Assembly (NCBI GenBank): GCA_951406725.2
Contig: OX597823.1
Span: 93,248,001-93,312,000, forward strand
From: Octopus vulgaris
Lineage: Eukaryota
Length of the DNA stretch: 64,000 nt
Direction: 5' to 3'
Every line of letters starts with the position of its first letter. Within the stretch, counting starts at the first letter, position 1. Below the pieces are notes generated by a model. The model saw only the letters and a list, made by a program, of their open reading frames with translations, made no database searches and was not told the origin of the DNA. Positions 1 to 49,756 of this stretch are shown here, in pieces. The translations under genes and the position numbers were made by a program.

Positions 1-1321
1 GCTAGAAATCCTCTTACTAATATTTTTAACTAAATTTTTGAATACTATAGGGGGATGGCATGAACCTACATTAATATAACTTAGTCTATCATTGGGCTTC
101 CTATAAGGCTTATAAATATTATTATTAAGATCTAAGGAAACGTCTAAGAAATTGACAACCGTCAGGTTAGTGTCTATAGTTATACTAAGTCCGAAGTGTT
201 TCATTAACTGGATAATATCCTTCCTAAAACGATCTTGTGCTGGTCCATTTGTATTAGCTGTTAAGGCGAGGGCATCATCTTTGTAGATGGCGAAATGTAC
301 GTTAGGGAATGTCTTACTGAAGGTATCTAGGAGAAAGAGTCCAATTAGATCACAGATGCCTGCCCCATCATATGAACCCATGCTCACATCGAAAGCGCCC
401 TCCGTGTCGGTGTTTTTTACCCACTTTGCATTCTCACTGAAAAGTAATGTCTTTCTAGCATGGAAGATTATATCCTTATCATTGGTACTAATTTCTATGA
501 AGTCACTAGCGAAGATTAGGGCTTTATCTAGCAGTTCTTTAGAGATAGAGGCATAAAAATCAACAATATCGAATTGTGTAAACCTCGCTTTTTTCTTATT
601 CTTAATAGCTTTAAACCAGTCTACGACTTCTATACTATTGGACCATTGCACTAGCCTAGTATCGGTCTTAATTTTCGTATTTATTTTATCTAAAATTTCT
701 TTGCTAATAATCCCTAGTTCTGACTTGGCTGGATTGATAAGCCTACATTTAGGATTGGAAAGGAAGTTTTCTTTGTGGTCTTTAATAGTAATAAAGGCCT
801 CTTTTTGGGGGAGGGTTTCTATTTTTTTATCTAATTTAAGTTTAGCGGCGATGACGCTAGCTTCTTTATTAATTTCGTTATATGTCTGTGCCCTAGCCTT
901 AGTATAATTATTAATGATGCTGTTGTGTAAGAGTTGTGTGTATTTGCTGTTATCTACCAGGTATAAGTTCTTGGTTTTATCCGAAAAAAGTGCTTTTTTC
1001 TTGGAGCTTTTTTATATGATCAATATCTTTTTTCAATTTATGTTGGAAATTGTTAAAAGACTTACGAAACTTTATTTTGCTCATGATCTTCAGCAGGTCC
1101 GCTTCGAAATCTTCCAAGCCTTTAATCCTAGGAGGGAATTTTTTGGATTTTATCCGATAGCAAATGTTTTCCTTGGTGTTCGCTTCTGTGTCAAAAAAGA
1201 AAGCCTTCCATCTCATACGCTTAATTACATCAGTAATTTTTTGCAGAAGTTTCTTAGAGTAAAAATTCTTTGATGGGATCGGTATATTTTTCATAGAATA
1301 ATCTATGTGATATGCGTCCAT
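1..1321 (-). pseudogene. Second tandem PLE ORF copy, frameshifted, continuing past the window edge
   Basis: Near-identical to 3911-2592. The T run at ~1008-1013 has 6 T versus 5 T at 3599-3603, giving the truncated 114-aa ORF 977-1321. Confidence 0.85.
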
Positions 1322-1526
1322 ATTAGATTCTTTTGTTTGTGAGAGTCCTCAACCGATGTTAGGCGATAATCCCAAAAAGGTCGTATTAGCTCTTAGTTGA
1401 GAATAACGTCGTCCGGGAGGTGATTTATTGATAAAACGGTAAGATAACAAAAGAAAGAAAGAGACCTCAATATTATGTAAATAGAGGAAATTTATCTATA
1501 CAATATGTTACATTACTCGGTAGTCA

Positions 1527-1589
1527 AGATAAAACTCTGAGTTTCAGATGCCGAAGTGGAAATCCACAACACCATCTCTTCGGTTATCT
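1527..1589 (-). ncRNA. Variant hammerhead ribozyme, inter-copy pLTR
   Basis: Reverse complement of 5991-6053. Confidence 0.7.
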
Positions 1590-1784
1590 GGCTATTTGAA
1601 AACGTTATGAAAAAATACCGTTAAAAATGAAGGGAAATTACTCTGTTATAACTCTGCTTTGCCTGCGTACTTATACATCGCTCGCATTTTTCGTCATAAA
1701 AATTATATAAAAATACATAAAAATATATAAAAAATATATAAAAATATATAAAATCTTCTTGGGACATAACACAGAAAGCATGTT

Positions 1785-3911
1785 CTATCCGTTTTCTTTA
1801 GGGGACCAAAAACGTAACAGAAATTTAGTCACATGTGGGCATGATCCGAAAAGCTCTGTCCTTGTATTTAGACATGTGGTAGGGTCTAAGCTGCTTTTCC
1901 AGATAAGCCATCTCTCCATGTCGCATAAACCGCACCTTCCGCTGCCGTTAGTATAGGGCTTACATCTGGCCAAAATCTTCCATTGTATGTTATAATCGAC
2001 ACCTTTATCTCTTAAAGACCAAATATGATTGGATAATTGTGTCGCTTTTCTTTTGTTCCAGTGCCTAAAGCTCAAAGTGTGGTTATTGAACCTGGCCTTG
2101 AAATTACCCTCTGTCAGGCCCACGTATTTCTTCGTCGAAACGGTGTCTTTAGTGGTTATAGAGTTTACGGTAGCTTCATATATGATGGTCTTGGACATGC
2201 AAGCTCCATTTAGCGGGCACAATTCTTTATTCCTGCATGAACAGCTGTTTTCTTCTTGTGTTTTTTGTATGTTATGATTGATTATGTTTTTAAAATTGGT
2301 AGTTGAACTAAAACTAATTTTTAAATTGTGTCTATTGAAGAGTTTCCTATAAGCATGGTTAACTGGAAAATGTCTATCTATCAGTGCTAGGAAATATTTA
2401 CCTATATTGAAGGCCACCTCGGGTGAGTAAGGGGGCGTAAACCAGATGACCTTCCTATTTCTATTATTCCTTTTCCTTATTGTTGGGCTGGTGATAGGTG
2501 TATATTTTATTTTTTCGCTAAAACCACTATCTTTTAAAGCTTTATTATAAACTGGGGCAACGCTATTGAAGATGTCCTCATTAGATGAGAGGCTAGAAAT
2601 CCTCTTACTAATATTTTTAACTAAATTTTTGAATACTATAGGGGGATGGCATGAACCTACATTAATATAACTTAGTCTATCATTGGGCTTCCTATAAGGC
2701 TTATAAATATTATTATTAAGATCTAAGGAAACGTCTAAGAAATTGACAACCGTCAGGTTAGTGTCTATAGTTATACTAAGTCCGAAGTGTTTCATTAACT
2801 GGATAATATCCTTCCTAAAACGATCTTGTGCTGGTCCATTTGTATTAGCTGTTAAGGCGAGGGCATCATCTTTGTAGATGGCGAAATGTACGTTAGGGAA
2901 TGTCTTACTGAAGGTATCTAGGAGAAAGAGTCCAATTAGATCACAGATGCCTGCCCCATCATATGAACCCATGCTCACATCGAAAGCGCCCTCCGTGTCG
3001 GTGTTTTTTACCCACTTTGCATTCTCACTGAAAAGTAATGTCTTTCTAGCATGGAAGATTATATCCTTATCATTGGTACTAATTTCTATGAAGTCACTAG
3101 CGAAGATTAGGGCTTTATTTAGCAGTTCTTTAGAGATAGAGGCATAAAAATCAACAATATCGAATTGTGTAAACCTCGCTTTTTTCTTATTCTTAATAGC
3201 TTTAAACCAGTCTACGACTTCTATACTATTGGACCATTGCACTAGCCTAGTATCGGTCTTAATTATCGTATTTATTTTATCTAAAATTTCTTTGCTAATA
3301 ATCCCTAGTTCTGACTTGGCTGGGTTGATAAGCCTACAATTAGGATTGGAAAGGAAGTTTTCTTTGTGGTCTTTAATAGTAATAAAGGCCTCTTTTTGGG
3401 GGAGGGTTTCTATTTTTTTATCTAATTTAAGTTTAGCGGCGATGACGCTAGCTTCTTTATTAATTTCGTTATATGTCTGTGCCCTAGCCTTAGTATAATT
3501 ATTAATGATGCTGTTATGTAAGAGTTGTGTGTATTTGCTGTTATCTACCAGGTATAAGTTCTTGGTTTTATCCGAAAAAAGTGCTTTTTTCTTGGAGCTT
3601 TTTATATGATCAATATCTTTTTTCAATTTATGTTGGAAATTGTTAAAAGACTTACGAAACTTTATTTTGCTCATGATCTTCAGCAGGTCCGCTTCGAAAT
3701 CTTCCAAGCCTTTAATCCTAGGAGGGAATTTTTTGGATTTTATCCGATAGCAAATGTTTTCCTTGGTGTTCGCTTCTGTGTCAAAAAAGAAAGCCTTCCA
3801 TCTCATACGCTTAATTACATCAGTAATTTTTTGCAGAAGTTTCTTAGAGTAAAAATACTTTGATGGGATCGGTATATTTTTCATAGAATAATCTATGTGA
3901 TATGCGTCCAT
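1785..3911 (-). CDS. Intact PLE polyprotein, 708 aa: reverse transcriptase + Cys-rich linker + C-terminal GIY-YIG endonuclease (tentatively Hydra clade)
   Basis: RT motifs FTQFDIVDFYASI, FDVSMGSYDGA, AIYKDD, VNFLDV, YRKPND. Linker CSCRNKELCPLNGAC. Endonuclease IIYEATV...KYVGLT...FKARFNNH, then RCGLC...E...LN...CPH. Confidence 0.93.
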   Translation of the reverse strand: MDAYHIDYSMKNIPIPSKYFYSKKLLQKITDVIKRMRWKAFFFDTEANTKENICYRIKSKKFPPRIKGLEDFEADLLKIMSKIKFRKSFNNFQHKLKKDIDHIKSSKKKALFSDKTKNLYLVDNSKYTQLLHNSIINNYTKARAQTYNEINKEASVIAAKLKLDKKIETLPQKEAFITIKDHKENFLSNPNCRLINPAKSELGIISKEILDKINTIIKTDTRLVQWSNSIEVVDWFKAIKNKKKARFTQFDIVDFYASISKELLNKALIFASDFIEISTNDKDIIFHARKTLLFSENAKWVKNTDTEGAFDVSMGSYDGAGICDLIGLFLLDTFSKTFPNVHFAIYKDDALALTANTNGPAQDRFRKDIIQLMKHFGLSITIDTNLTVVNFLDVSLDLNNNIYKPYRKPNDRLSYINVGSCHPPIVFKNLVKNISKRISSLSSNEDIFNSVAPVYNKALKDSGFSEKIKYTPITSPTIRKRNNRNRKVIWFTPPYSPEVAFNIGKYFLALIDRHFPVNHAYRKLFNRHNLKISFSSTTNFKNIINHNIQKTQEENSCSCRNKELCPLNGACMSKTIIYEATVNSITTKDTVSTKKYVGLTEGNFKARFNNHTLSFRHWNKRKATQLSNHIWSLRDKGVDYNIQWKILARCKPYTNGSGRCGLCDMERWLIWKSSLDPTTCLNTRTELFGSCPHVTKFLLRFWSPKENG

Positions 3912-4116
3912 ATTAGATTCTTTTGTTTGTGAGAGTCCTCAACCGATGTTAGGCGATAATCCCAAAAAGGTCGTATTAGCTCTTTGTTGAGAATAACGTC
4001 GTCCGGGAGGTGATTTATTGATAAAACGGTAAGATAACAAAAGAAAGAAAGAGACCTCAATATTATGTAAATAGAGGAAATTTATCTATACAATATGTTA
4101 CATTACTCGGTAGTCA

Positions 4117-4179
4117 AGATAAAACTCTGAGTTTCAGATGCCGAAGTGGAAATCCACAACACCATCTCTTCGGTTATCT
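4117..4179 (-). ncRNA. Variant hammerhead ribozyme, upstream pLTR copy
   Basis: Reverse complement of 5991-6053. Confidence 0.7.
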
Positions 4180-4216
4180 GGCTATTTGAAAACGTTATGA
4201 AAAAATACCGTTAAAA

Positions 4217-5794
4217 ATGAAGGGAAATTACTCTGTTATAACTAGGCTTATCAACCCAGCCAAGTCAGAACTAGGGATTATTAGCAAAGAAATTTTAGAT
4301 AAAATAAATACGAAAATTAAGACCGATACTAGGCTAGTGCAATGGTCCAATAGTATAGAAGTCGTAGACTGGTTTAAAGCTATTAAGAATAAGAAAAAAG
4401 CGAGGTTTACACAATTCGATATTGTTGATTTTTATGCCTCTATCTCTAAAGAACTGCTAGATAAAGCCCTAATCTTCGCTAGTGACTTCATAGAAATTAG
4501 TACCAATGATAAGGATATAATCTTCCATGCTAGAAAGACATTACTTTTCAGTGAGAATGCAAAGTGGGTAAAAAACACCAACACGGAGGGCGCTTTCGAT
4601 GTGAGCATGGGTTCATATGATGGGGCAGGCATCTGTGATCTAATTGGACTCTTTCTCCTAGATACCTTCAGTAAGACATTCCCTAACGTACATTTCGCCA
4701 TCTACAAAGATGATGCCCTCGCCTTAACAGCTAATACAAATGGACCAGCACAAGATCGTTTTAGGGAGGATATTATCCAGTTAATGAAACACTTCGGACT
4801 TAGTATAACTATAGACACTAACCTGACGGTTGTCAATTTCTTAGACGTTTCCTTAGATCTTAATAATAATATTTATAAGCCTTATAGGAAGCCCAATGAT
4901 AGACTAAGTTATATTAATGTAGGTTCATGCCATCCCCCTATAGTATTCAAAAATTTAGTTAAAAATATTAGTAAGAGGATTTCTAGCCTCTCATCTAATG
5001 AGGACATCTTCAATAGCGTTGCCCCAGTTTATAATAAAGCTTTAAAAGATAGTGGTTTTAGCGAAAAAATAAAATATACACCTATCACCAGCCCAACAAT
5101 AAGGAAAAGGAATAATAGAAATAGTAAGGTCATCTGGTTTACGCCCCCTTACTCACCAGAGGTGGCCTTCAATATAGGTAAATATTTCCTAGCACTGATA
5201 GATAGACATTTTCCAGTTAACCATGCTTATAGGAAACTCTTCAATAGACACAATTTAAAAATTAGTTTTAGTTCAACTACCAATTTTAAAAACATAATCC
5301 ATCATAACATACAAAAAACACAAGAAGAAAACAGCTGTTCATGCAGGAATAAAGAATTGTGCCCGCTAAATGGAGCTTGCATGTCCAAGACCATCATATA
5401 TGAAGCTACCGTAAACTCTATAACCACTAAAGACACCGTTTCGACGAAGAAATACGTGGGCCTGACAGAGGGTAATTTCAAGGCCAGGTTCAATAACCAC
5501 ACTTTGAGCTTTAGGCACTGGAACAAAAGAAAAGCGACACAATTATCCAATCATATTTGGTCTTTAAGAGATAAAGGTGTCGATTATAACATACAATGGA
5601 AGATTTTGGCCAGATGTAAGCCCTATACTAACGGCAGCGGAAGGTGCGGTTTATGCGACATGGAGAGATGGCTTATCTGGAAAAGCAGCTTAGACCCTAC
5701 CACATGTCTAAATACAAGGACAGAGCTTTTCGGATCATGCCCACATGTGACTAAATTTCTGTTACGTTTTTGGTCCCCTAAAGAAAACGGATAG
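4217..5794 (+). CDS. Inverted 5'-truncated PLE copy; 525-aa open frame with complete RT core and GIY-YIG, first 9 codons derived from the antisense pLTR
   Basis: From RLINPAKS onward it is nearly identical to the 708-aa ORF. MKGNYSVIT comes from the reverse-complemented pLTR before the junction at ~4241-4243. Confidence 0.8.
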   Translation: MKGNYSVITRLINPAKSELGIISKEILDKINTKIKTDTRLVQWSNSIEVVDWFKAIKNKKKARFTQFDIVDFYASISKELLDKALIFASDFIEISTNDKDIIFHARKTLLFSENAKWVKNTNTEGAFDVSMGSYDGAGICDLIGLFLLDTFSKTFPNVHFAIYKDDALALTANTNGPAQDRFREDIIQLMKHFGLSITIDTNLTVVNFLDVSLDLNNNIYKPYRKPNDRLSYINVGSCHPPIVFKNLVKNISKRISSLSSNEDIFNSVAPVYNKALKDSGFSEKIKYTPITSPTIRKRNNRNSKVIWFTPPYSPEVAFNIGKYFLALIDRHFPVNHAYRKLFNRHNLKISFSSTTNFKNIIHHNIQKTQEENSCSCRNKELCPLNGACMSKTIIYEATVNSITTKDTVSTKKYVGLTEGNFKARFNNHTLSFRHWNKRKATQLSNHIWSLRDKGVDYNIQWKILARCKPYTNGSGRCGLCDMERWLIWKSSLDPTTCLNTRTELFGSCPHVTKFLLRFWSPKENG

Positions 5795-6149
5795 AACATG
5801 CTTTCTGTGTTATGTCCCAAGAAGATTTTATATATTTTTATATATTTTTTTATATATTTTTATGTATTTTTATATAATTTTTATGACGAAAAATGCGAGC
5901 GATGTATAAGTACGCAGGCAAAGCAGAGTTATAACAGAGTAATTTCCCTTCATTTTTAACGGTATTTTTTCATAACGTTTTCAAATAGCCAGATAACCGA
6001 AGAGATGGTGTTGTGGATTTCCACTTCGGCATCTGAAACTCAGAGTTTTATCTTGACTACCGAGTAATGTAACATATTGTATAGATAAATTTCCTCTATT
6101 TACATAATATTGAGGTCTCTTTCTTTCTTTTGTTATCTTACCGTTTTAT

Positions 6150-6151
<2 letters not shown>
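5795..6151 (+). repeat. PLE 3' UTR / pseudo-LTR (other copies 1428-1784 and partial 4018-4241 on minus)
   Basis: Three essentially identical copies flank the ORFs and contain the HHR-like motif. Confidence 0.9.
5991..6053 (+). ncRNA. Variant type I hammerhead ribozyme in pLTR (CCGAAGA core)
   Basis: AGATAA-CCGAAGA-GATG..GTGG ATTT CCAC..CATC-T-GAAA-CTCAGAG-TT-TTATCT. Stem I AGATAA/TTATCT, stem II GATG/CATC, short stem III, GUU site. Confidence 0.7.
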
Positions 6152-6210
<59 letters not shown>

Positions 6211-7848: not shown

Positions 7849-9146
7849 TGATAATTAACAGGTTGTAATTGAAGAAATACATCGAAGAGGCCAGGGAACA
7901 GAAGAAAGAAGAAGAAAGAAGACATGCACCCAATACCAGAGCTGAAGACACCTCCGAAAGGGGGGGCGCCACGTCAAAACGGTAGAGGAGTAGGGGCCGA
8001 AACCGGACGTGGTTCCTCCTGATGATGTCTTAAGCTAACCGGACTCTATAAAGGAGCTATTGTGGTAGCAGACCACGAAACACGGTTGTAATTCCTCCAG
8101 TATGGATGAGGCTTCATTGCTGTTGGAGATACTGTCCAGATGGAAAACAAACGACTACTAGAATATTTACAGAACACCATGTCGCGCACATATGGTTGTG
8201 ATGCATGTGCCTTGTGTCCCCTTATCAGACTGGTACTCATGATGGGTATATTGGGTTTCGTATATTTGTACCCCAGTATTACTTTCATGACGTATAATGC
8301 CCTCTCGCTCAATAATGATAATACTAATAATGGTGCCAATTTCTAGCACAAGTTCAGCAATTACTGGGCAGGCATAATTGATTAGTATCAACTCTAGCAC
8401 ACAACATATACTTATTTAATTGACACCGAAATTATGAAACGCGAAGGTGACCTCGGCAGTCTTTGGACTCAGAATGTAAAGACGAACTTGGCAATAGCGA
8501 TTTTGTTGCATGGTTAATGTCTGTGGACGCTCATGTCATTTAGAAGGCCTACGTCAGACGCAGATATCTTTGCAGGTTGTGAAGTCAATTGTTTACCGAT
8601 TACGGTTGTCTTTTTGTTTGTAAATATGCATGGACATGGATGTATACAATTTGCTCGGCATTTATGCTATTCCCTCTTTTCATCTAAAACTTCTTACGAA
8701 ATTCGGTCGATGGGATTTGATTCTTGCGAGACTTTGTAAAGAAAACTTACCGTTGGAAATATCTATACAACTGTAAAAACACAGTTAAACCAATACTAAG
8801 GTACGTAGACGATTTTGAAAATGAATACACAATTAGTGAGTAATCAACACAGACACACACACACAACACACACACATACACGCGCGAACAATTTCAATTC
8901 ATTCAAGCACACAGAGATGATCGATGACAAACTTGATAAACTACAGCAAATGTTTATAATTATCAGCCTTACAATATACATTGATAAAAACAAAATGCGT
9001 GTGAGTGTGTGCATGTGTGTGTGTGTGTTTGTGTGCACTCTCCAATATAGTGTTATACATAACATTCAACCACACGCAAGCTACGATATACTCACATGTT
9101 TATATGTCTGTGAGTGTGCGCGTGCATGTGTGCGTGTAAGTATGTA

Positions 9147-26062: not shown

Positions 26063-26529
26063 TTATATATATATATGTGTGTGTGTGTGCATGCGTATTA
26101 TTGTGCCTGGGGAGTTTCTTTCTCTTTTAGTGTCTTATTAAGTTTTCCACTCATCTATTTATTTTAGCTAAAATTTTCATTGCGACTTCCAACCTTTTCA
26201 GTAGTCACTGAGTCTGTCCGTTATCAGAATTGCGTTCTTTATTTTTTTGTAGCCATGCGTGTGCGTTAGCGTGTGTGTGTATATATATGTATGTATGCAT
26301 TTATGTGTGTATGCATACTCATATGTATGCATGCATGCACGTTTGTATGCATGCATGCATGTATGTATGTATGTATGTATGTATGTAATCTGCATATTTG
26401 TGTGTATGCATATATGTGTGTGCATGCATATATATATGTGTATCCATGTGTGTACAGTTGTATGTATGTATATATGTGTGTATGCGTGTGTTTGTGCCTG
26501 TCTGTCCATATTTCCTATTTAATACTGGT

Positions 26530-27725
26530 GATGTTTCATTAATGATGATGTACTCTTCTATCTGTCTGAGTGTTGTGTCATTCGGGTGCTTGGATAAAAT
26601 GCGGATGTCAAGTTGACCCAGTGTGCCTCCATATTGGTGGGATATGAAGGATCGTTTTTGTCGTCATATTGTTTCAGTCTCAGGGGTTCATTTAGTCTAT
26701 CCTTAATGTCCTAGATGTCTCACCTTATATATTATGTTTTTGTCTTTGCAAGCGCCCTCTATGCACCTTATGCACTTCTAGTTCTACAGTTAATGCCAGG
26801 TTTAATCTTACATACTATGCAGTTATCATTGGTGCCTTTGGTATTCTCAAAGGAGTACATCCTTCATAGTTGTGATCTGATGGAGCTCCCTGGCTTTTCA
26901 ACGATCCTAATCTTGATTTAAGCCTCCTTTAGATTGTTCCTAAATGTACGAGTTTGTTATCAATGGGCTGAGGCCTCTACAAACATCACCCCTTGATATC
27001 TGTCGGTCCTGAACCACGTATTCACCTTGTTTGCTTTGTTAGAAACTCCTTGTATCGCATTCCAATCTTTACTTCTATATCTATTGCAGGTACCATTGGT
27101 TTCATTACTTATAATGCTAACCTCTTTCTAGCACCCCTGTATATCCGATCTCTATCTTTCTGATCATATCGAGAGAACTGTATGTGGTGCATGAAGTTCC
27201 GTTCATGCTGCTTCGTTTCACAGGATTCGCATAGGGGGGACACGCTCTCAATTATCCTCACTAGGTCTGCTATCAGTTTGTTGATTTTTATGCTGTGTGA
27301 CAAAACTGAGTTCTTGTGAACAACATATTTAGAAGCTATAGGTTTCATGTAGTATATGTGAAGAAGCTGCATTCTGTTGTTCACAGTCTCTAACCAAATT
27401 TCAGTATCAAGGACAGGGAGCCTATTGTGAGAGTTCCTATTGGGGTAATCTATAGTTCCTTTGATAATTTGGTGCATGGAGTTAGTTACATGCTGGATGT
27501 TCTACGTTATGCTCCTCTCCGTTTCTACATGGTGGTTATTAGAGTCTATCCTAATTAGAGCGTCAATATCATCTACATACCTACAGTAAAGTAAAACATT
27601 ACTGGATTGTTTTCCTAAGGATCGTTTTAGTTTCCTGTACCACTAAGTCCCGAAGAAGCCGGCCTCATCTCTAGCCACACCGATACCAATAGCTTCACCT
27701 TGAACATGCATGTATAGTTTGTTGT
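26530..27725 (-). pseudogene. Decayed PLE of a second, unrelated family (RT motifs B-E, thumb, GIY-YIG remnant)
   Basis: QGEAIGIG, YCRYVDD, DYPNRNSHNRLPVLD, YYMKPIASKYVV, then CIVC..NCRT and a GETSR-like remnant, with multiple stops. Confidence 0.75.
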
Positions 27726-28098
27726 TAGGTATATATATATATATGATACAAATAAGAACATGGAGAAACAAATTCGGTTAGTTCATCAACTTACGGATAT
27801 TATAATGTTGGATATTTATTATTTTACAAATGAGAACATCAAAAGCATACAAAAATATATAAATCAATAGATAAGATAATAATACAAATACAGATTTTAA
27901 AAGTCATATTATAAATTAATGAAGAACAAACTAAATTTGTTTCTCCATTTTCTTATTTGTATTATAAATTTGCGGTAAAATATTTCTTTACCTTCACCCG
28001 TTTAAAGCAATAAATGAATTAATTGCATTACGAACAGTATATTGGATAAATGATATCCCATAGTGGGTTACACTCATAACCCATTTCTTACTTTGTAC

Positions 28099-40143: not shown

Positions 40144-40201
<58 letters not shown>

Positions 40202-40390
40202 ATATATAAAAGGGCTTAGTAAAATAAATTACTTTGCCGCATACTGAACTCATTAGAAATAGCAGCTAAAAAACTTTTTTAAAAACCATTTCTAATACTT
40301 AAAGAAAATCTCTCTCGTATAGTGTTTGGTCAACTCAACTCACGAAAGTTTGGGGGTAAAGACATAAAAAAATCAAATGCAAAGGTTATT

Positions 40391-40442
40391 TGAGAACGTA
40401 CGTTTCAAGATTAGTCATCAAGACACTTCTATCATCAGCTCA
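40391..40442 (-). ncRNA. Type I hammerhead, inverted copy
   Basis: Reverse complement of 41022-41073. Confidence 0.8.
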
Positions 40443-41021
40443 GAAACTCCTTGGTTTGGATTTGAAAACACTGAAAGTGAGAGCATACTCTTTCGGCCTC
40501 TCATCGCCTTCGAAGATCTGCTCGTAACTAACAGTGCCAACAAACTCAAACATGCAAGCGAAGAATTTCTGCCCTCCCCTTTCCACCAGCGTGGGTTAAA
40601 ATCAACAAACACTCTGCTTATTTCGGTAAAATCCGAAGCATTAATTAGAGGAGATTAATTATAATTTCAACAATTGAGGGTAAAATTAATTAATTATTAA
40701 TTAATTTCACCAAGTGTTCAGTATGCAAAGGGACCATTTAAGGCGAATTCAAATTATTACAATATATAAAAGGGCTTAGTAAAATAAATTACTTTGCCGC
40801 ATACTTAATCTCCCTCTAATTAATGCTTCGGATTTTACCGAAATAAGCAGAGTGTTTGTTGATTTTAACCCACGCTGGTGGAAAGGGGAGGGCAGAAATT
40901 CTTCGCTTGCATGTTTGAGTTTGTTGGCACTGTTAGTTACGAGCAGATCTTCGAAGGCGATGAGAGGCCGAAAGAGTATGCTCTCACTTTCAGTGTTTTC
41001 AAATCCAAACCAAGGAGTTTC

Positions 41022-41073
41022 TGAGCTGATGATAGAAGTGTCTTGATGACTAATCTTGAAACGTACGTTCTCA
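41022..41073 (+). ncRNA. Type I hammerhead, canonical core
   Basis: TGAG-CTGATGA-tAGA..GTC TTGAT GAC..TCTt-GAAAC GTAC GTT-CTCA; palindromic stem III AACGTACGTT; GUU site. Confidence 0.8.
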
Positions 41074-41403
41074 AATAACCTTTGCATTTGATTTTTTTAT
41101 GTCTTTACCCCAAACTTTCGTGAGTTGAGTTGACCAAACACTATACGAGAGATTTTCTTTAAGTATTAGAAATGGTTTTTAAAAAAGTTTTTTAGCTGCT
41201 ATTTCTAATGAGTTCAGTATGCGGCAAAGTAATTTATTTTACTAAGCCCTTTTATATATTGTAATAATTTGAATTCGCCTTAAATGGTCCCTTTGCATAC
41301 TGAACACTTGGTGAAATTAATTAATAATTAATTAATTTTACCCTCAATTGTTGAAATATATATATATATATATATAAATAAGCAACAAGGATATGAAAGG
41401 CAG

Positions 41404-46852: not shown

Positions 46853-46913
<61 letters not shown>

Positions 46914-47057
46914 TAAATATAAGAGAGTGGTCACTATATGGCTCACTCTAGCACCAGTTAATCCAAAAGGTTTCAACCACGAAAATACATGTTTCCCATG
47001 AAAGTCAGTACGATTGTTAGCTCACACGGACAGGGCAAATAAAAAATAACAAAAATA

Positions 47058-47154
47058 CAGATTATTTTGGGACAATTGTTTCGCTATTAATGAATTAAAT
47101 GTAATTTTACTTACAAAAAAAATCCATTTGTAGCTCGTCAGCCAAAACTATCTG
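47058..47154 (-). ncRNA. Canonical type I hammerhead, unit 1
   Basis: Minus: CAGATAGTTTTGG-CTGACGA-GCTA..AATGGATT..TGTAA/TTACA..AATTCATT..TAGC-GAAAC AATT GTC-CCAAAATAATCTG; GUC site. Confidence 0.92.
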
Positions 47155-47600
47155 GATGAAATCCACTCAATCACACGCCAGATTTTACCATAACGATAAA
47201 TACGCGTGTGGTTCAATTGATTACATCCGACGTTATAATTCAAATGCCCCAACTAACAGCGCGCCAAACTTTCACGGAAAACAATTACAGCATTTAGAAA
47301 TAAATGCAGCATAATTATAATTAATTAATAAGGGTGAGAGAATTAGATACTAATTTAATAGTATATCTATTCAACACCAAGTGGCCTAGTGCTACGAGAA
47401 ACCTGGATTATTATAATATTTTATAACATATTATAATATTTTTACAAAATAAATATAAGAGAGTGGTCACTATATGGCTCACTCTAGCACCAGTTAATCC
47501 AAAAGGTTTCAACCACGAAAATACATGTTTCCCATGAAAGTCAGTACGATTGTTAGCTCACACGGACAGGGCAAATAAAAAATAACAAAAATACAGATTA

Positions 47601-47683
47601 TTTTGGGACAATTGTTTCGCTATTAATGAATTAAATGTAATTTTACTTACAAAAAAAATCCATTTGTAGCTCGTCAGCCCAAA
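47601..47683 (-). ncRNA. Type I hammerhead, unit 2 (one stem I mismatch)
   Basis: As unit 1, with cagcccaaac instead of cagccaaaac. Confidence 0.88.
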
Positions 47684-48136
47684 CTATCTGGATGAAATCC
47701 ACTCAATCACATGCCAGATTTTACCATAACGATAAATACGCGTGTGGTTCAATTGATTACATCCGACGTTATAATTCAAATGCCCCAACTAACAGCGCGC
47801 CAAACTTTCACGGAAAACAATTACAGCATTTAGAAATAAATGCAGCATAATTATAATTAATTAATAAGGGTGAGAGAATTAGATACTAATTTAATAGTAT
47901 ATCTATTCAACACCAAGTGGCCTAGTGCTACGAGAAACCTGGATTATTATAATATTTTATAACATATTATAATATTTTTACAAAATAAATATAAGAGAGT
48001 GGTCACTATATGGCTCACTCTAGCACCAGTTAATCCAAAAGGTTTCAACCACGAAAATACATGTTTCCCATGAAAGTCAGTACGATTGTTAGCTCACACG
48101 GACAGGGCAAATAAAAAATAACAAAAATACAGATTA

Positions 48137-48218
48137 TTTTGGGACAATTGTTTCGCTATTAATGAATTAAATGTAATTTTACTTACAAAAAAATCCATTT
48201 GTAGCTCGTCAGCCAAAA
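48137..48218 (-). ncRNA. Type I hammerhead, unit 3
   Basis: As unit 1; A run one base shorter. Confidence 0.9.
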
Positions 48219-48671
48219 CTATCTGGATGAAATCCACTCAATCACACGCCAGATTTTACCATAACGATAAATACGCGTGTGGTTCAATTGATTACATCCG
48301 ACGTTATAATTCAAATGCCCCAACTAACAGCGCGCCAAACTTTCACGGAAAACAAATACAGCATTTAGAAATAAATGCAGCATAATTATAATTAATTAAT
48401 AAGGGTGAGAGAATTAGATACTAATTTAATAGTATATCTATTCAACACCAAGTGGCCTAGTGCTACGAGAAACCTTGATTATTATAATATTTTATAACAT
48501 ATTATAATATTTTTACAAAATAAATATAAGAGAGTGGTCACTATATGGCTCACTCTAGCACCAGTTAATCCAAAAGGTTTCAACCACGAAAATACATGTT
48601 TCCCATGAAAGTCAGTACGATTGTTAGCTCACACGGACAGGGCAAATAAAAAATAACAAAAATACAGATTA

Positions 48672-48754
48672 TTTTGGGACAATTGTTTCGCTATTAATGA
48701 ATTAAATGTAATTTTACTTACAAAAAAAATCCATTTGTAGCTCGTCAGCCAAAA
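48672..48754 (-). ncRNA. Type I hammerhead, unit 4
   Basis: As unit 1. Confidence 0.9.
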
Positions 48755-49207
48755 CTATCTGGATGAAATCCACTCAATCACACGCCAGATTTTACCATAA
48801 CGATAAATACGCGTGTGGTTCAATTGATTACATCCGACGTTATAATTCAAATGCCCCAACTAACAGCGCGCCAAACTTTCACGGAAAACAAATACAGCAT
48901 TTAGAAATAAATGCAGCATAATTATAATTAATTAATAAGGGTGAGAGAATTAGATACTAATTTAATAGTATATCTATTCAACACCAAGTGGCCTAGTGCT
49001 ACGAGAAACCTGGATTATTATAATATTTTATAACATATTATAATATTTTTACAAAATAAATATAAGAGAGTGGTCACTATATGGCTCACTCTAGCACCAG
49101 TTAATCCAAAAGGTTTCAACGATGAAAATACATGTTTCCCATGAAAGTCAGTACGATTGTTAGCTCACACGGACAGGGCAAATAAAAAATAACAAAAATA
49201 CAGATTA

Positions 49208-49290
49208 TTTTGGGACAATTGTTTCGCTATTAATGAATTAAATGTAATTTTACTTACAAAAAAAATCCATTTGTAGCTCGTCAGCCAAAA
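49208..49290 (-). ncRNA. Type I hammerhead, unit 5
   Basis: As unit 1. Confidence 0.9.
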
Positions 49291-49592
49291 CTATCTGGAT
49301 GAAATCCACTCAATCACACGCCAGATTTTACCATAACGATAAATACGCGTGTGGTTCAATTGATTACATCCGACGTTATAATTCAAATGCCCCAACTAAC
49401 AGCGCGCCAAACTTTCACGGAAAACAAATACAGCATTTAGAAATAAATGCAGCATAATTATAATTAATTAATAAGGGTGAGAGAATTAGATACTAATTTA
49501 ATAGTATATCTATTCAACACCAAGTGGCCTAGTGCTACGAGAAACCTGGATTATTATAATATTTTATAACATATTATAATATTTTTACAAAA

Positions 49593-49678
49593 TTATAATC
49601 CAGGTTTCTCGTAGCACTAGGCCACTTGGTGTTGAATAGATATACTATTAAATTAGTATCTAATTCTCTCATCCTTAA

Positions 49679-49685
<7 letters not shown>
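49593..49685 (+). repeat. Inverted ~90-bp terminal fragment of the 536-bp unit, fused to (TA)n
   Basis: Reverse complement of ~49461-49555 with one substitution and a 3-bp deletion. Confidence 0.9.

Positions 49686-49756
<71 letters not shown>

Follow-up and report, generated by a model that had tools for sequence, protein, structure and literature searches.

A high-copy non-coding 560-nt hammerhead repeat of Octopus vulgaris with two fixed 3' ends and Penelope-like inverted copies

The element at positions 40201-41357 of the 64,000-nt stretch of Octopus vulgaris DNA analyzed here (hereafter the window) is a recently inserted copy of a 560-nt non-coding repeat that occurs in high copy number, carries a predicted hammerhead and was probably mobilized in trans by a Penelope-like element (PLE) protein that primed at two sites of one template. 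Judged from its sequence, the repeat is a non-autonomous PLE derivative (i.e., a non-LTR retrozyme) with an inverted copy and an unusually long tail. This assignment follows from the behavior of the intact coding PLEs of the same genome: each inverted locus of the 560-nt repeat typically pairs two different fixed 3' ends, termed X and Y, and a coding family with a 717-aa ORF does the same in 15 of its 17 complete inverted loci. As far as aligned genomic copies can establish, the 560-nt family has fixed ends, an X+Y rule, TA targeting, arms of one haplotype and a conserved ribozyme core.

The host genome (2.8 Gb) is rich in microsatellites, and the element is flanked on both sides by (TA)n, so that any target-site duplication is masked and unreadable. 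The features of the locus are as follows.

40145..40200, no strand: (TA)n target microsatellite, left flank
40201..40805, minus: left arm, 605 nt (monomer plus 45 nt), ribozyme sense on the minus strand
40201, minus: 3' end of the left arm, fixed end X, ~197 nt downstream of the predicted cleavage site
40391..40442, minus: type I hammerhead motif of the left arm, predicted cleavage between 40395 and 40394
40805..40806, no strand: arm junction, head-to-head (5'-to-5'), asymmetric, with a 1-nt overlap
40806..41357, plus: right arm, 552 nt, inverted
41022..41073, plus: type I hammerhead motif of the right arm, stem I TGAG/CTCA
41026-41032, plus: right-arm hammerhead core CTGATGA
41058-41061, plus: right-arm hammerhead GAAA; stem II opens with a U.U pair
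41061-41068, plus: right-arm palindrome ACGTACGT, predicted GUU cleavage after 41069
41212..41305, plus: predicted 11-bp long-range helix (41212-41222 with 41295-41305) enclosing the AU-rich X site
41261..41357, plus: "tail" between X and Y, ~97 nt, at this end only
41310..41342, plus: AT-rich hairpin immediately before Y
41357, plus: 3' end of the right arm, fixed end Y, ~295 nt downstream of the predicted cleavage site
41358..41377, no strand: (TA)n target microsatellite, right flank

The geometry agrees with what a sequence-only reading of this DNA had described. The 560-nt unit (40201-40760) is repeated at 560-nt spacing, restarting at 40761 and continuing for 45 nt to 40805, and the right arm (40806-41357) is an inverted, near-complete monomer with another starting point, i.e., the reverse complement of monomer positions 464-560 followed by positions 1 to ~455, which crosses the unit junction of the left arm. 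Between the two arms there are three small indels, all within simple runs, and no substitution at 540 compared sites. The element contains no ORF of at least 120 aa, and the search of the 560-nt element for an ORF with reverse transcriptase (RT) and GIY-YIG endonuclease yielded none.

Both arms carry the sequence TGAG-CTGATGA-(stem II)-GAAA-CGTACG-TT^CTCA. The sequence-only reading had proposed a hammerhead with a 10-nt palindromic stem III in each arm; a type I motif is indeed found in both, although only 8 nt of the 10-nt palindrome (ACGTACGT) are able to form stem III. The outer A and T of the palindrome correspond to the core A14 and the cleavage-site H17 of standard hammerhead numbering. 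Given that the pattern CTGANGA-N15-40-GAAACGTACGTH had 2307 matches in the genome and its reversed control only 2, the motif is not a product of chance. The full motif was kept in 176 of the 183 sampled units, and 5 of 1145 ribozyme core letters differed (0.44%) compared to 4.36% overall, a contrast drawn from related copies that are not independent events; the core thus appears to be under constraint. Subfamilies keep the core and vary at N7, H17 and the opening pair of stem II. Among 176 units, stem II begins with U.U in 161 and with A.A in 14. Some subfamilies have A at H17, including the 545-546-nt ones whose arrays of 12 and 11 units lie at C1:71597378-71603427 and C1:33099609-33105375, respectively. 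Rfam returned no hammerhead at 40201-41357 at the gathering score or at E up to 10, and the matches over the element at E up to 10 were palindrome artefacts; the other hammerhead motifs of the window were likewise missed at the gathering score. The hammerhead call therefore rests on the motif and its conservation.

Stem III is predicted to have 2 bp in a monomer (+2.4 kcal/mol) vs. an 8-bp duplex between two copies (-9.8 kcal/mol), and the hammerhead fold (-4.7 kcal/mol; z 0.2-0.4) is not the minimum-energy fold (-11.9 kcal/mol). In axolotl, the hammerhead HHR_Amex2 is reported to have U.U as the basal pair of helix II; its activity is weak and improves on dimerization (PMC7229834). The whole 560-nt monomer is predicted to be strongly structured (z -6.4): X would lie in an AU-rich loop closed by the 11-bp helix, and Y follows the AT-rich hairpin. 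One pair of this helix showed a compensatory change, from C-G to U-A, in 21 of 112 loci. Covariation was mixed, with at least two double changes in 9 of the 178 predicted pairs and at least six breaks in 18 of them. The arrangement of CACTTGGTG, a hairpin and ACCCTYA before Y is common to the 560-nt family and a 536-nt family.

A 33-mer of the repeat matched the genome exactly 2056 times. The first 100 of these matches fell in 51 loci, so that about a thousand loci is a fair estimate of family size; the best copies were 97-100% identical. We mapped 128 distinct loci out of about 1000. They came from the 40 best BLAST matches, a set biased to long copies, from 51 loci taken in order along contig 1 (3 of them common to the BLAST set), and from 24 loci chosen by the Y-end pattern, 8 by the tail pattern and 8 of a 565-nt sister family. 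We excluded duplicates, 2 edge-cut loci, the further element present in L093 and any locus of the 536-nt family, and one locus (L021) was left unclassified. Positions are numbered on the ribozyme-sense strand from the predicted cleavage site (s1).

The sequence-only reading took the different endpoints of the two arms for circular permutations of the monomer and proposed the distribution of ends among genomic copies as a check. That distribution speaks otherwise. Among 211 3' ends in the 128 loci, 97 were at X, 109 at Y and only 5 elsewhere, i.e., 206 of the 211 lay at two sites. X falls at s186-204, a width caused by the TA-rich overlap with the target, and Y at s294-299, leaving a tail of 97-100 nt; TA adjoins 203 of the 211 ends. 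Thus, the "two permutations" at 40201-41357 are the X and Y ends of the family. The 5' ends, in contrast, are scattered across the whole monomer and are not enriched at the predicted cleavage site (3 seen vs. 2.6 expected). The copies are dispersed and combine fixed 3' ends with variable 5' truncation and partial tandems; tandem arrays reach 6 and 12 units. As 78 of 139 arms cross the predicted cleavage site, some for up to 6 laps, the template was longer than one cut linear monomer. The sequence-only reading is therefore upheld in so far as it saw a tandem unit that carries a hammerhead, was reverse-transcribed and belongs with the non-LTR retrozymes.

The two ends are paired with near strictness. 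Of 84 inverted loci, 80 were X+Y, none was XX or YY, and 4 had one odd end; all 84 had their 3' ends outward and unique flanks. In the position-ordered sample the rule held in 32 of 32 inverted loci, for which the chance is about 2e-10 if the ends are independent. The 43 single-arm loci ended at Y (27), at X (15) or elsewhere (1). The arms of one locus differed at 0.56% of sites (119/21351, 65 loci) vs. a median of 4.07% to other loci, and no other locus was closer than the partner arm in 51 of the 65, another being closer in 14. By this comparison both arms of an inverted locus come from one haplotype, although part of their identity could stem from later gene conversion. At L049, the Y arm has three different unit haplotypes and the X arm is uniform, for which a mixed template, template switching or conversion may be responsible.

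Coding PLEs of the same genome behave similarly. We took their proteins to be PLE proteins by RT, GIY-YIG and CCHH motifs; as a Pfam search with the 717-aa ORF gave no match, these calls rest on those motifs. The 717-aa RT plus GIY-YIG element in the window is young and intact in many copies. Its two 3' ends are 67 nt apart, and the two inverted loci outside the X+Y pattern comprise one YY locus and one with an odd end. The copy at window positions 1-6157 consists of 2590-nt units in tandem and inverted, with a hammerhead-like motif that has CCGAAGA in place of CTGANGA. In an 899-aa family, which has a hammerhead with a palindromic stem III, the ends are ~150 nt apart and X+Y was found in 5 of 6 inverted loci. 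This family (L244, L261, L262) is young, with a 3624-nt unit, a canonical-core hammerhead and a long insertion separating the RT from the endonuclease. A 781-aa GIY-YIG family (L327, L332, L349) has two 3' ends ~36 nt apart, the usual tail length.

In the reading that we prefer, tandem copies would be transcribed into a multimeric RNA. The hammerhead, probably as a dimer formed via the palindromic stem III, may cut the multimer into monomers, which would be ligated into circles. A PLE protein with RT and GIY-YIG endonuclease, acting in trans, would cut both strands of a (TA)n run; one target strand would prime at the AU-rich X and the other at Y, ~100 nt downstream, on RNA of the same haplotype. 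Each cDNA would halt at a variable point, and a template switch, often near the same RNA position, would join the two head-to-head, leaving the tail on just one side. Fixation of one cDNA without the other would yield a single arm, with X or Y as its end. The enzymes, the cleavage and the shape of the template are what we infer in this scheme.

We put a circular template at slightly below even chances. Junctions at the cleavage site lack indels in 185 of 187 cases, and the divergence in 27 paired loci is 0.40% among units of one locus vs. 0.27% between arms, the excess coming from two loci; units were heterogeneous in 3 of 54 multi-lap loci, one of which is probably misaligned. These precise junctions and like units fit a circle, but they also fit read-through from young, uniform arrays, and the mixed units of L049 mean that a single monomer circle cannot be the source of that locus. 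Contigs from presumed-RNA runs include the element, and strand, ends and circles are unreadable from such contigs. In a broader and more tentative form, Penelope-type insertion in general might be obligate two-site, two-strand priming, in which a dimer would set the cut strands on two structured sites of one RNA (in the present family, probably a circle produced by the hammerhead and lapped by both polymerases). The tail and the inverted copy would then arise in one event, and the tail length (36-150 nt here) would be set by the RNA fold of each family.

Other routes to an inverted pair have to be weighed against two-site priming. It is rather unlikely that a single priming event was followed by self-priming fold-back, with the endonuclease resolving the second arm at the other site, although ideas close to both steps are found in PMC3846280 and PMC8557442. 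Fold-back would account for arms that share a haplotype and for near-palindromic junctions: in 21 of 78 loci, no more than 10 nt of the circle separate the two 5' ends, vs. 4.5 loci in permutations, some of the 21 falling in internal hairpins where the alignments overlap. One arm is contained in the other in 52 of 75 simple inversions, which fold-back, too, would explain, and the Y arm is the longer one in 51. Yet the X arm is longer in the other 24, single arms end at X or Y, and in 23 of the 75, including 40201-41357, neither arm is a sub-interval of the other, 6 of these loci sharing almost no sequence between arms. Fold-back with endonuclease resolution thus does not fit the non-nested loci. 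It should be noted that in the purified PAc of Anolis the use of start sites was alike on the two strands (PMC11167929), and such equal use would not in itself predict the strict X+Y pairing of the two-site model.

Reverse transcription that entered a circular RNA at arbitrary points, and so produced random circular permutations, is improbable in the extreme. The 5' ends spread over the whole monomer, the many laps through the cleavage site and the indel-free junctions would all be expected of it, but almost all 3' ends lie at two sites, and the outer ends at 40201-41357 are exactly these. The fixed ends leave untouched a circular template that is read from set start sites. Palindromes are prone to rearrangement and assembly error, which lends some plausibility to two separate insertions, recombination between neighboring copies or a fold-back artefact of long-read assembly. 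We nevertheless give such origins hardly any weight, since 84 inverted loci share outward 3' ends, X+Y pairing, same-haplotype arms and unique flanks, and an assembly artefact would yield identical ends. Nor is it at all likely that two RNA molecules from one donor locus, one per subunit of a PLE dimer, supplied the two arms. The free overlap of the arms in sequence and the different unit patterns of the L049 arms past the first lap would suit this origin; however, two RNAs would often differ in a family of about a thousand loci with a median divergence of 4%, the junction points are correlated between arms, and strict X+Y pairing would have no obvious reason. Two-site priming on one template remains the reading that we favor.

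The coding partner of the 560-nt repeat was sought by shared sequence. No autonomous partner sharing sequence with the monomer was found within the 64-kb window, none of 30 GIY-YIG loci shared sequence with it, and ten 3' regions from PLE loci scored no higher against it than shuffled sequences. Four coding families, drawn from thousands of candidates, had no sequence in common with the 560-nt unit, and the search among the 1312-aa, 899-aa, 781-aa and 717-aa families yielded no partner. A search by a Y-then-ATG pattern and by loose contig ends found none, and L341 was rejected because its one weak match lay beyond the end of that element. At L247, L254, L271 and L278, 560-type copies share (TA)n runs with ends of the 899-aa family; they are apparently separate insertions. 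In a chimera found at two places on contig 1 (L183:1200-2900; also L213 and L214), an RT fragment from the 899-aa group passes into a 536-type repeat at the ribozyme, with short microhomology at the join, a hint that the 899-aa protein group handles such RNAs. The 536-nt family is also present in the window (46900-49690) as five non-coding units with a hammerhead motif on the minus strand, a GUC site, the palindrome ACAATTGT and a short inverted piece ending at (TA)n. Further hammerhead-like motifs lie at window positions 8019 (plus), 23147 (plus) and 24649 (minus), the last with a palindromic stem III (ACCTAGGT), and a decayed PLE fragment at 26493-27726 is related to a young 1312-aa family (L193), which looks Neptune-like by its motifs.

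Taken as an element, the 560-nt repeat is unremarkable: one more animal retrozyme whose ends are of the Penelope type. Its only novelties are the long tail and the counted X+Y rule, the latter a modest, testable addition. The family nonetheless provides a large, young, short-unit data set on how PLE inverted copies and tails arise, the origin of which was called open in PMC8557442. PAc cuts and extends both strands, its tail is the interval between two internal RT start sites, and it is predicted to be a dimer that does not require ribozyme cleavage (PMC11167929). The near-strict X+Y pairing and the same-haplotype, non-overlapping arms would tie these two in vitro start sites to dual priming, and they argue against simple fold-back. 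Since this genome offers both a 560-nt RNA and young, intact PLE proteins, the dual-priming model is directly testable. A survey of the open literature (subscription papers, preprint supplements and Repbase aside) turned up neither a count of X+Y pairing nor a dual-priming model for PLEs, nor any study of cephalopod retrozymes.

Like the non-LTR retrozymes (Cervera and de la Peña, 2020; PMC7229834), the repeat consists of non-coding tandem units of low GC content, from monomers to multimers, each with one type I hammerhead and a weak palindromic stem III. Its 560 nt, which the sequence-only reading thought long for a metazoan retrozyme, falls inside the 51-972 bp spanned by published animal families (bioRxiv 10.64898/2026.07.22.740005), and retrozymes have been argued to be non-autonomous PLE derivatives (Li, Clavereau and Pollet, 2026; same preprint). 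It exceeds the 170-400 nt of the RNAs shown to be circular, and it is known here from DNA sequence. The (TA)n runs hide any target-site duplication, and an inverted arm is present in about two thirds of the sampled loci, whereas the word "inverted" is absent from the main text of PMC7229834. The accounts in PMC8969392 and PMC5680766 agree with the other PLE and retrozyme literature and extend it no further.

The repeat resembles endonuclease-positive PLEs in that it has an inverted copy joined head-to-head, junctions that are palindromic, 5' truncation of varying extent, 3' ends fixed at two sites downstream of the hammerhead, and AT-rich or (TA)n targets (PMC8557442, PMC3846280, PMC11167929). 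According to PMC8557442, PLEs occur as partial tandems, carry inverted 5' copies and, at one end, a tail of 30-40 bp, and have a (TA)n bias. The one-sided tail, the inverted 5' copy and the (TA)n bias also appear in PMC3846280, where palindromic head-to-head junctions were interpreted as self-priming. Unlike these PLEs, the 560-nt element has no ORF, and its tail of ~100 nt is longer than the 30-40 nt published, compared to 67, ~150 and ~36 nt in the coding families of this genome. In L1 twin priming, a single RNA is primed from each of the two target strands, which yields an inversion with outward 3' ends; where the second strand primes is variable, and the arms meet without overlapping. The octopus repeat resembles L1 in its 3'-ends-out inversion and in the proposed priming by both target strands on one RNA; it differs in that its two sites are fixed and its arms have hundreds of bases in common.
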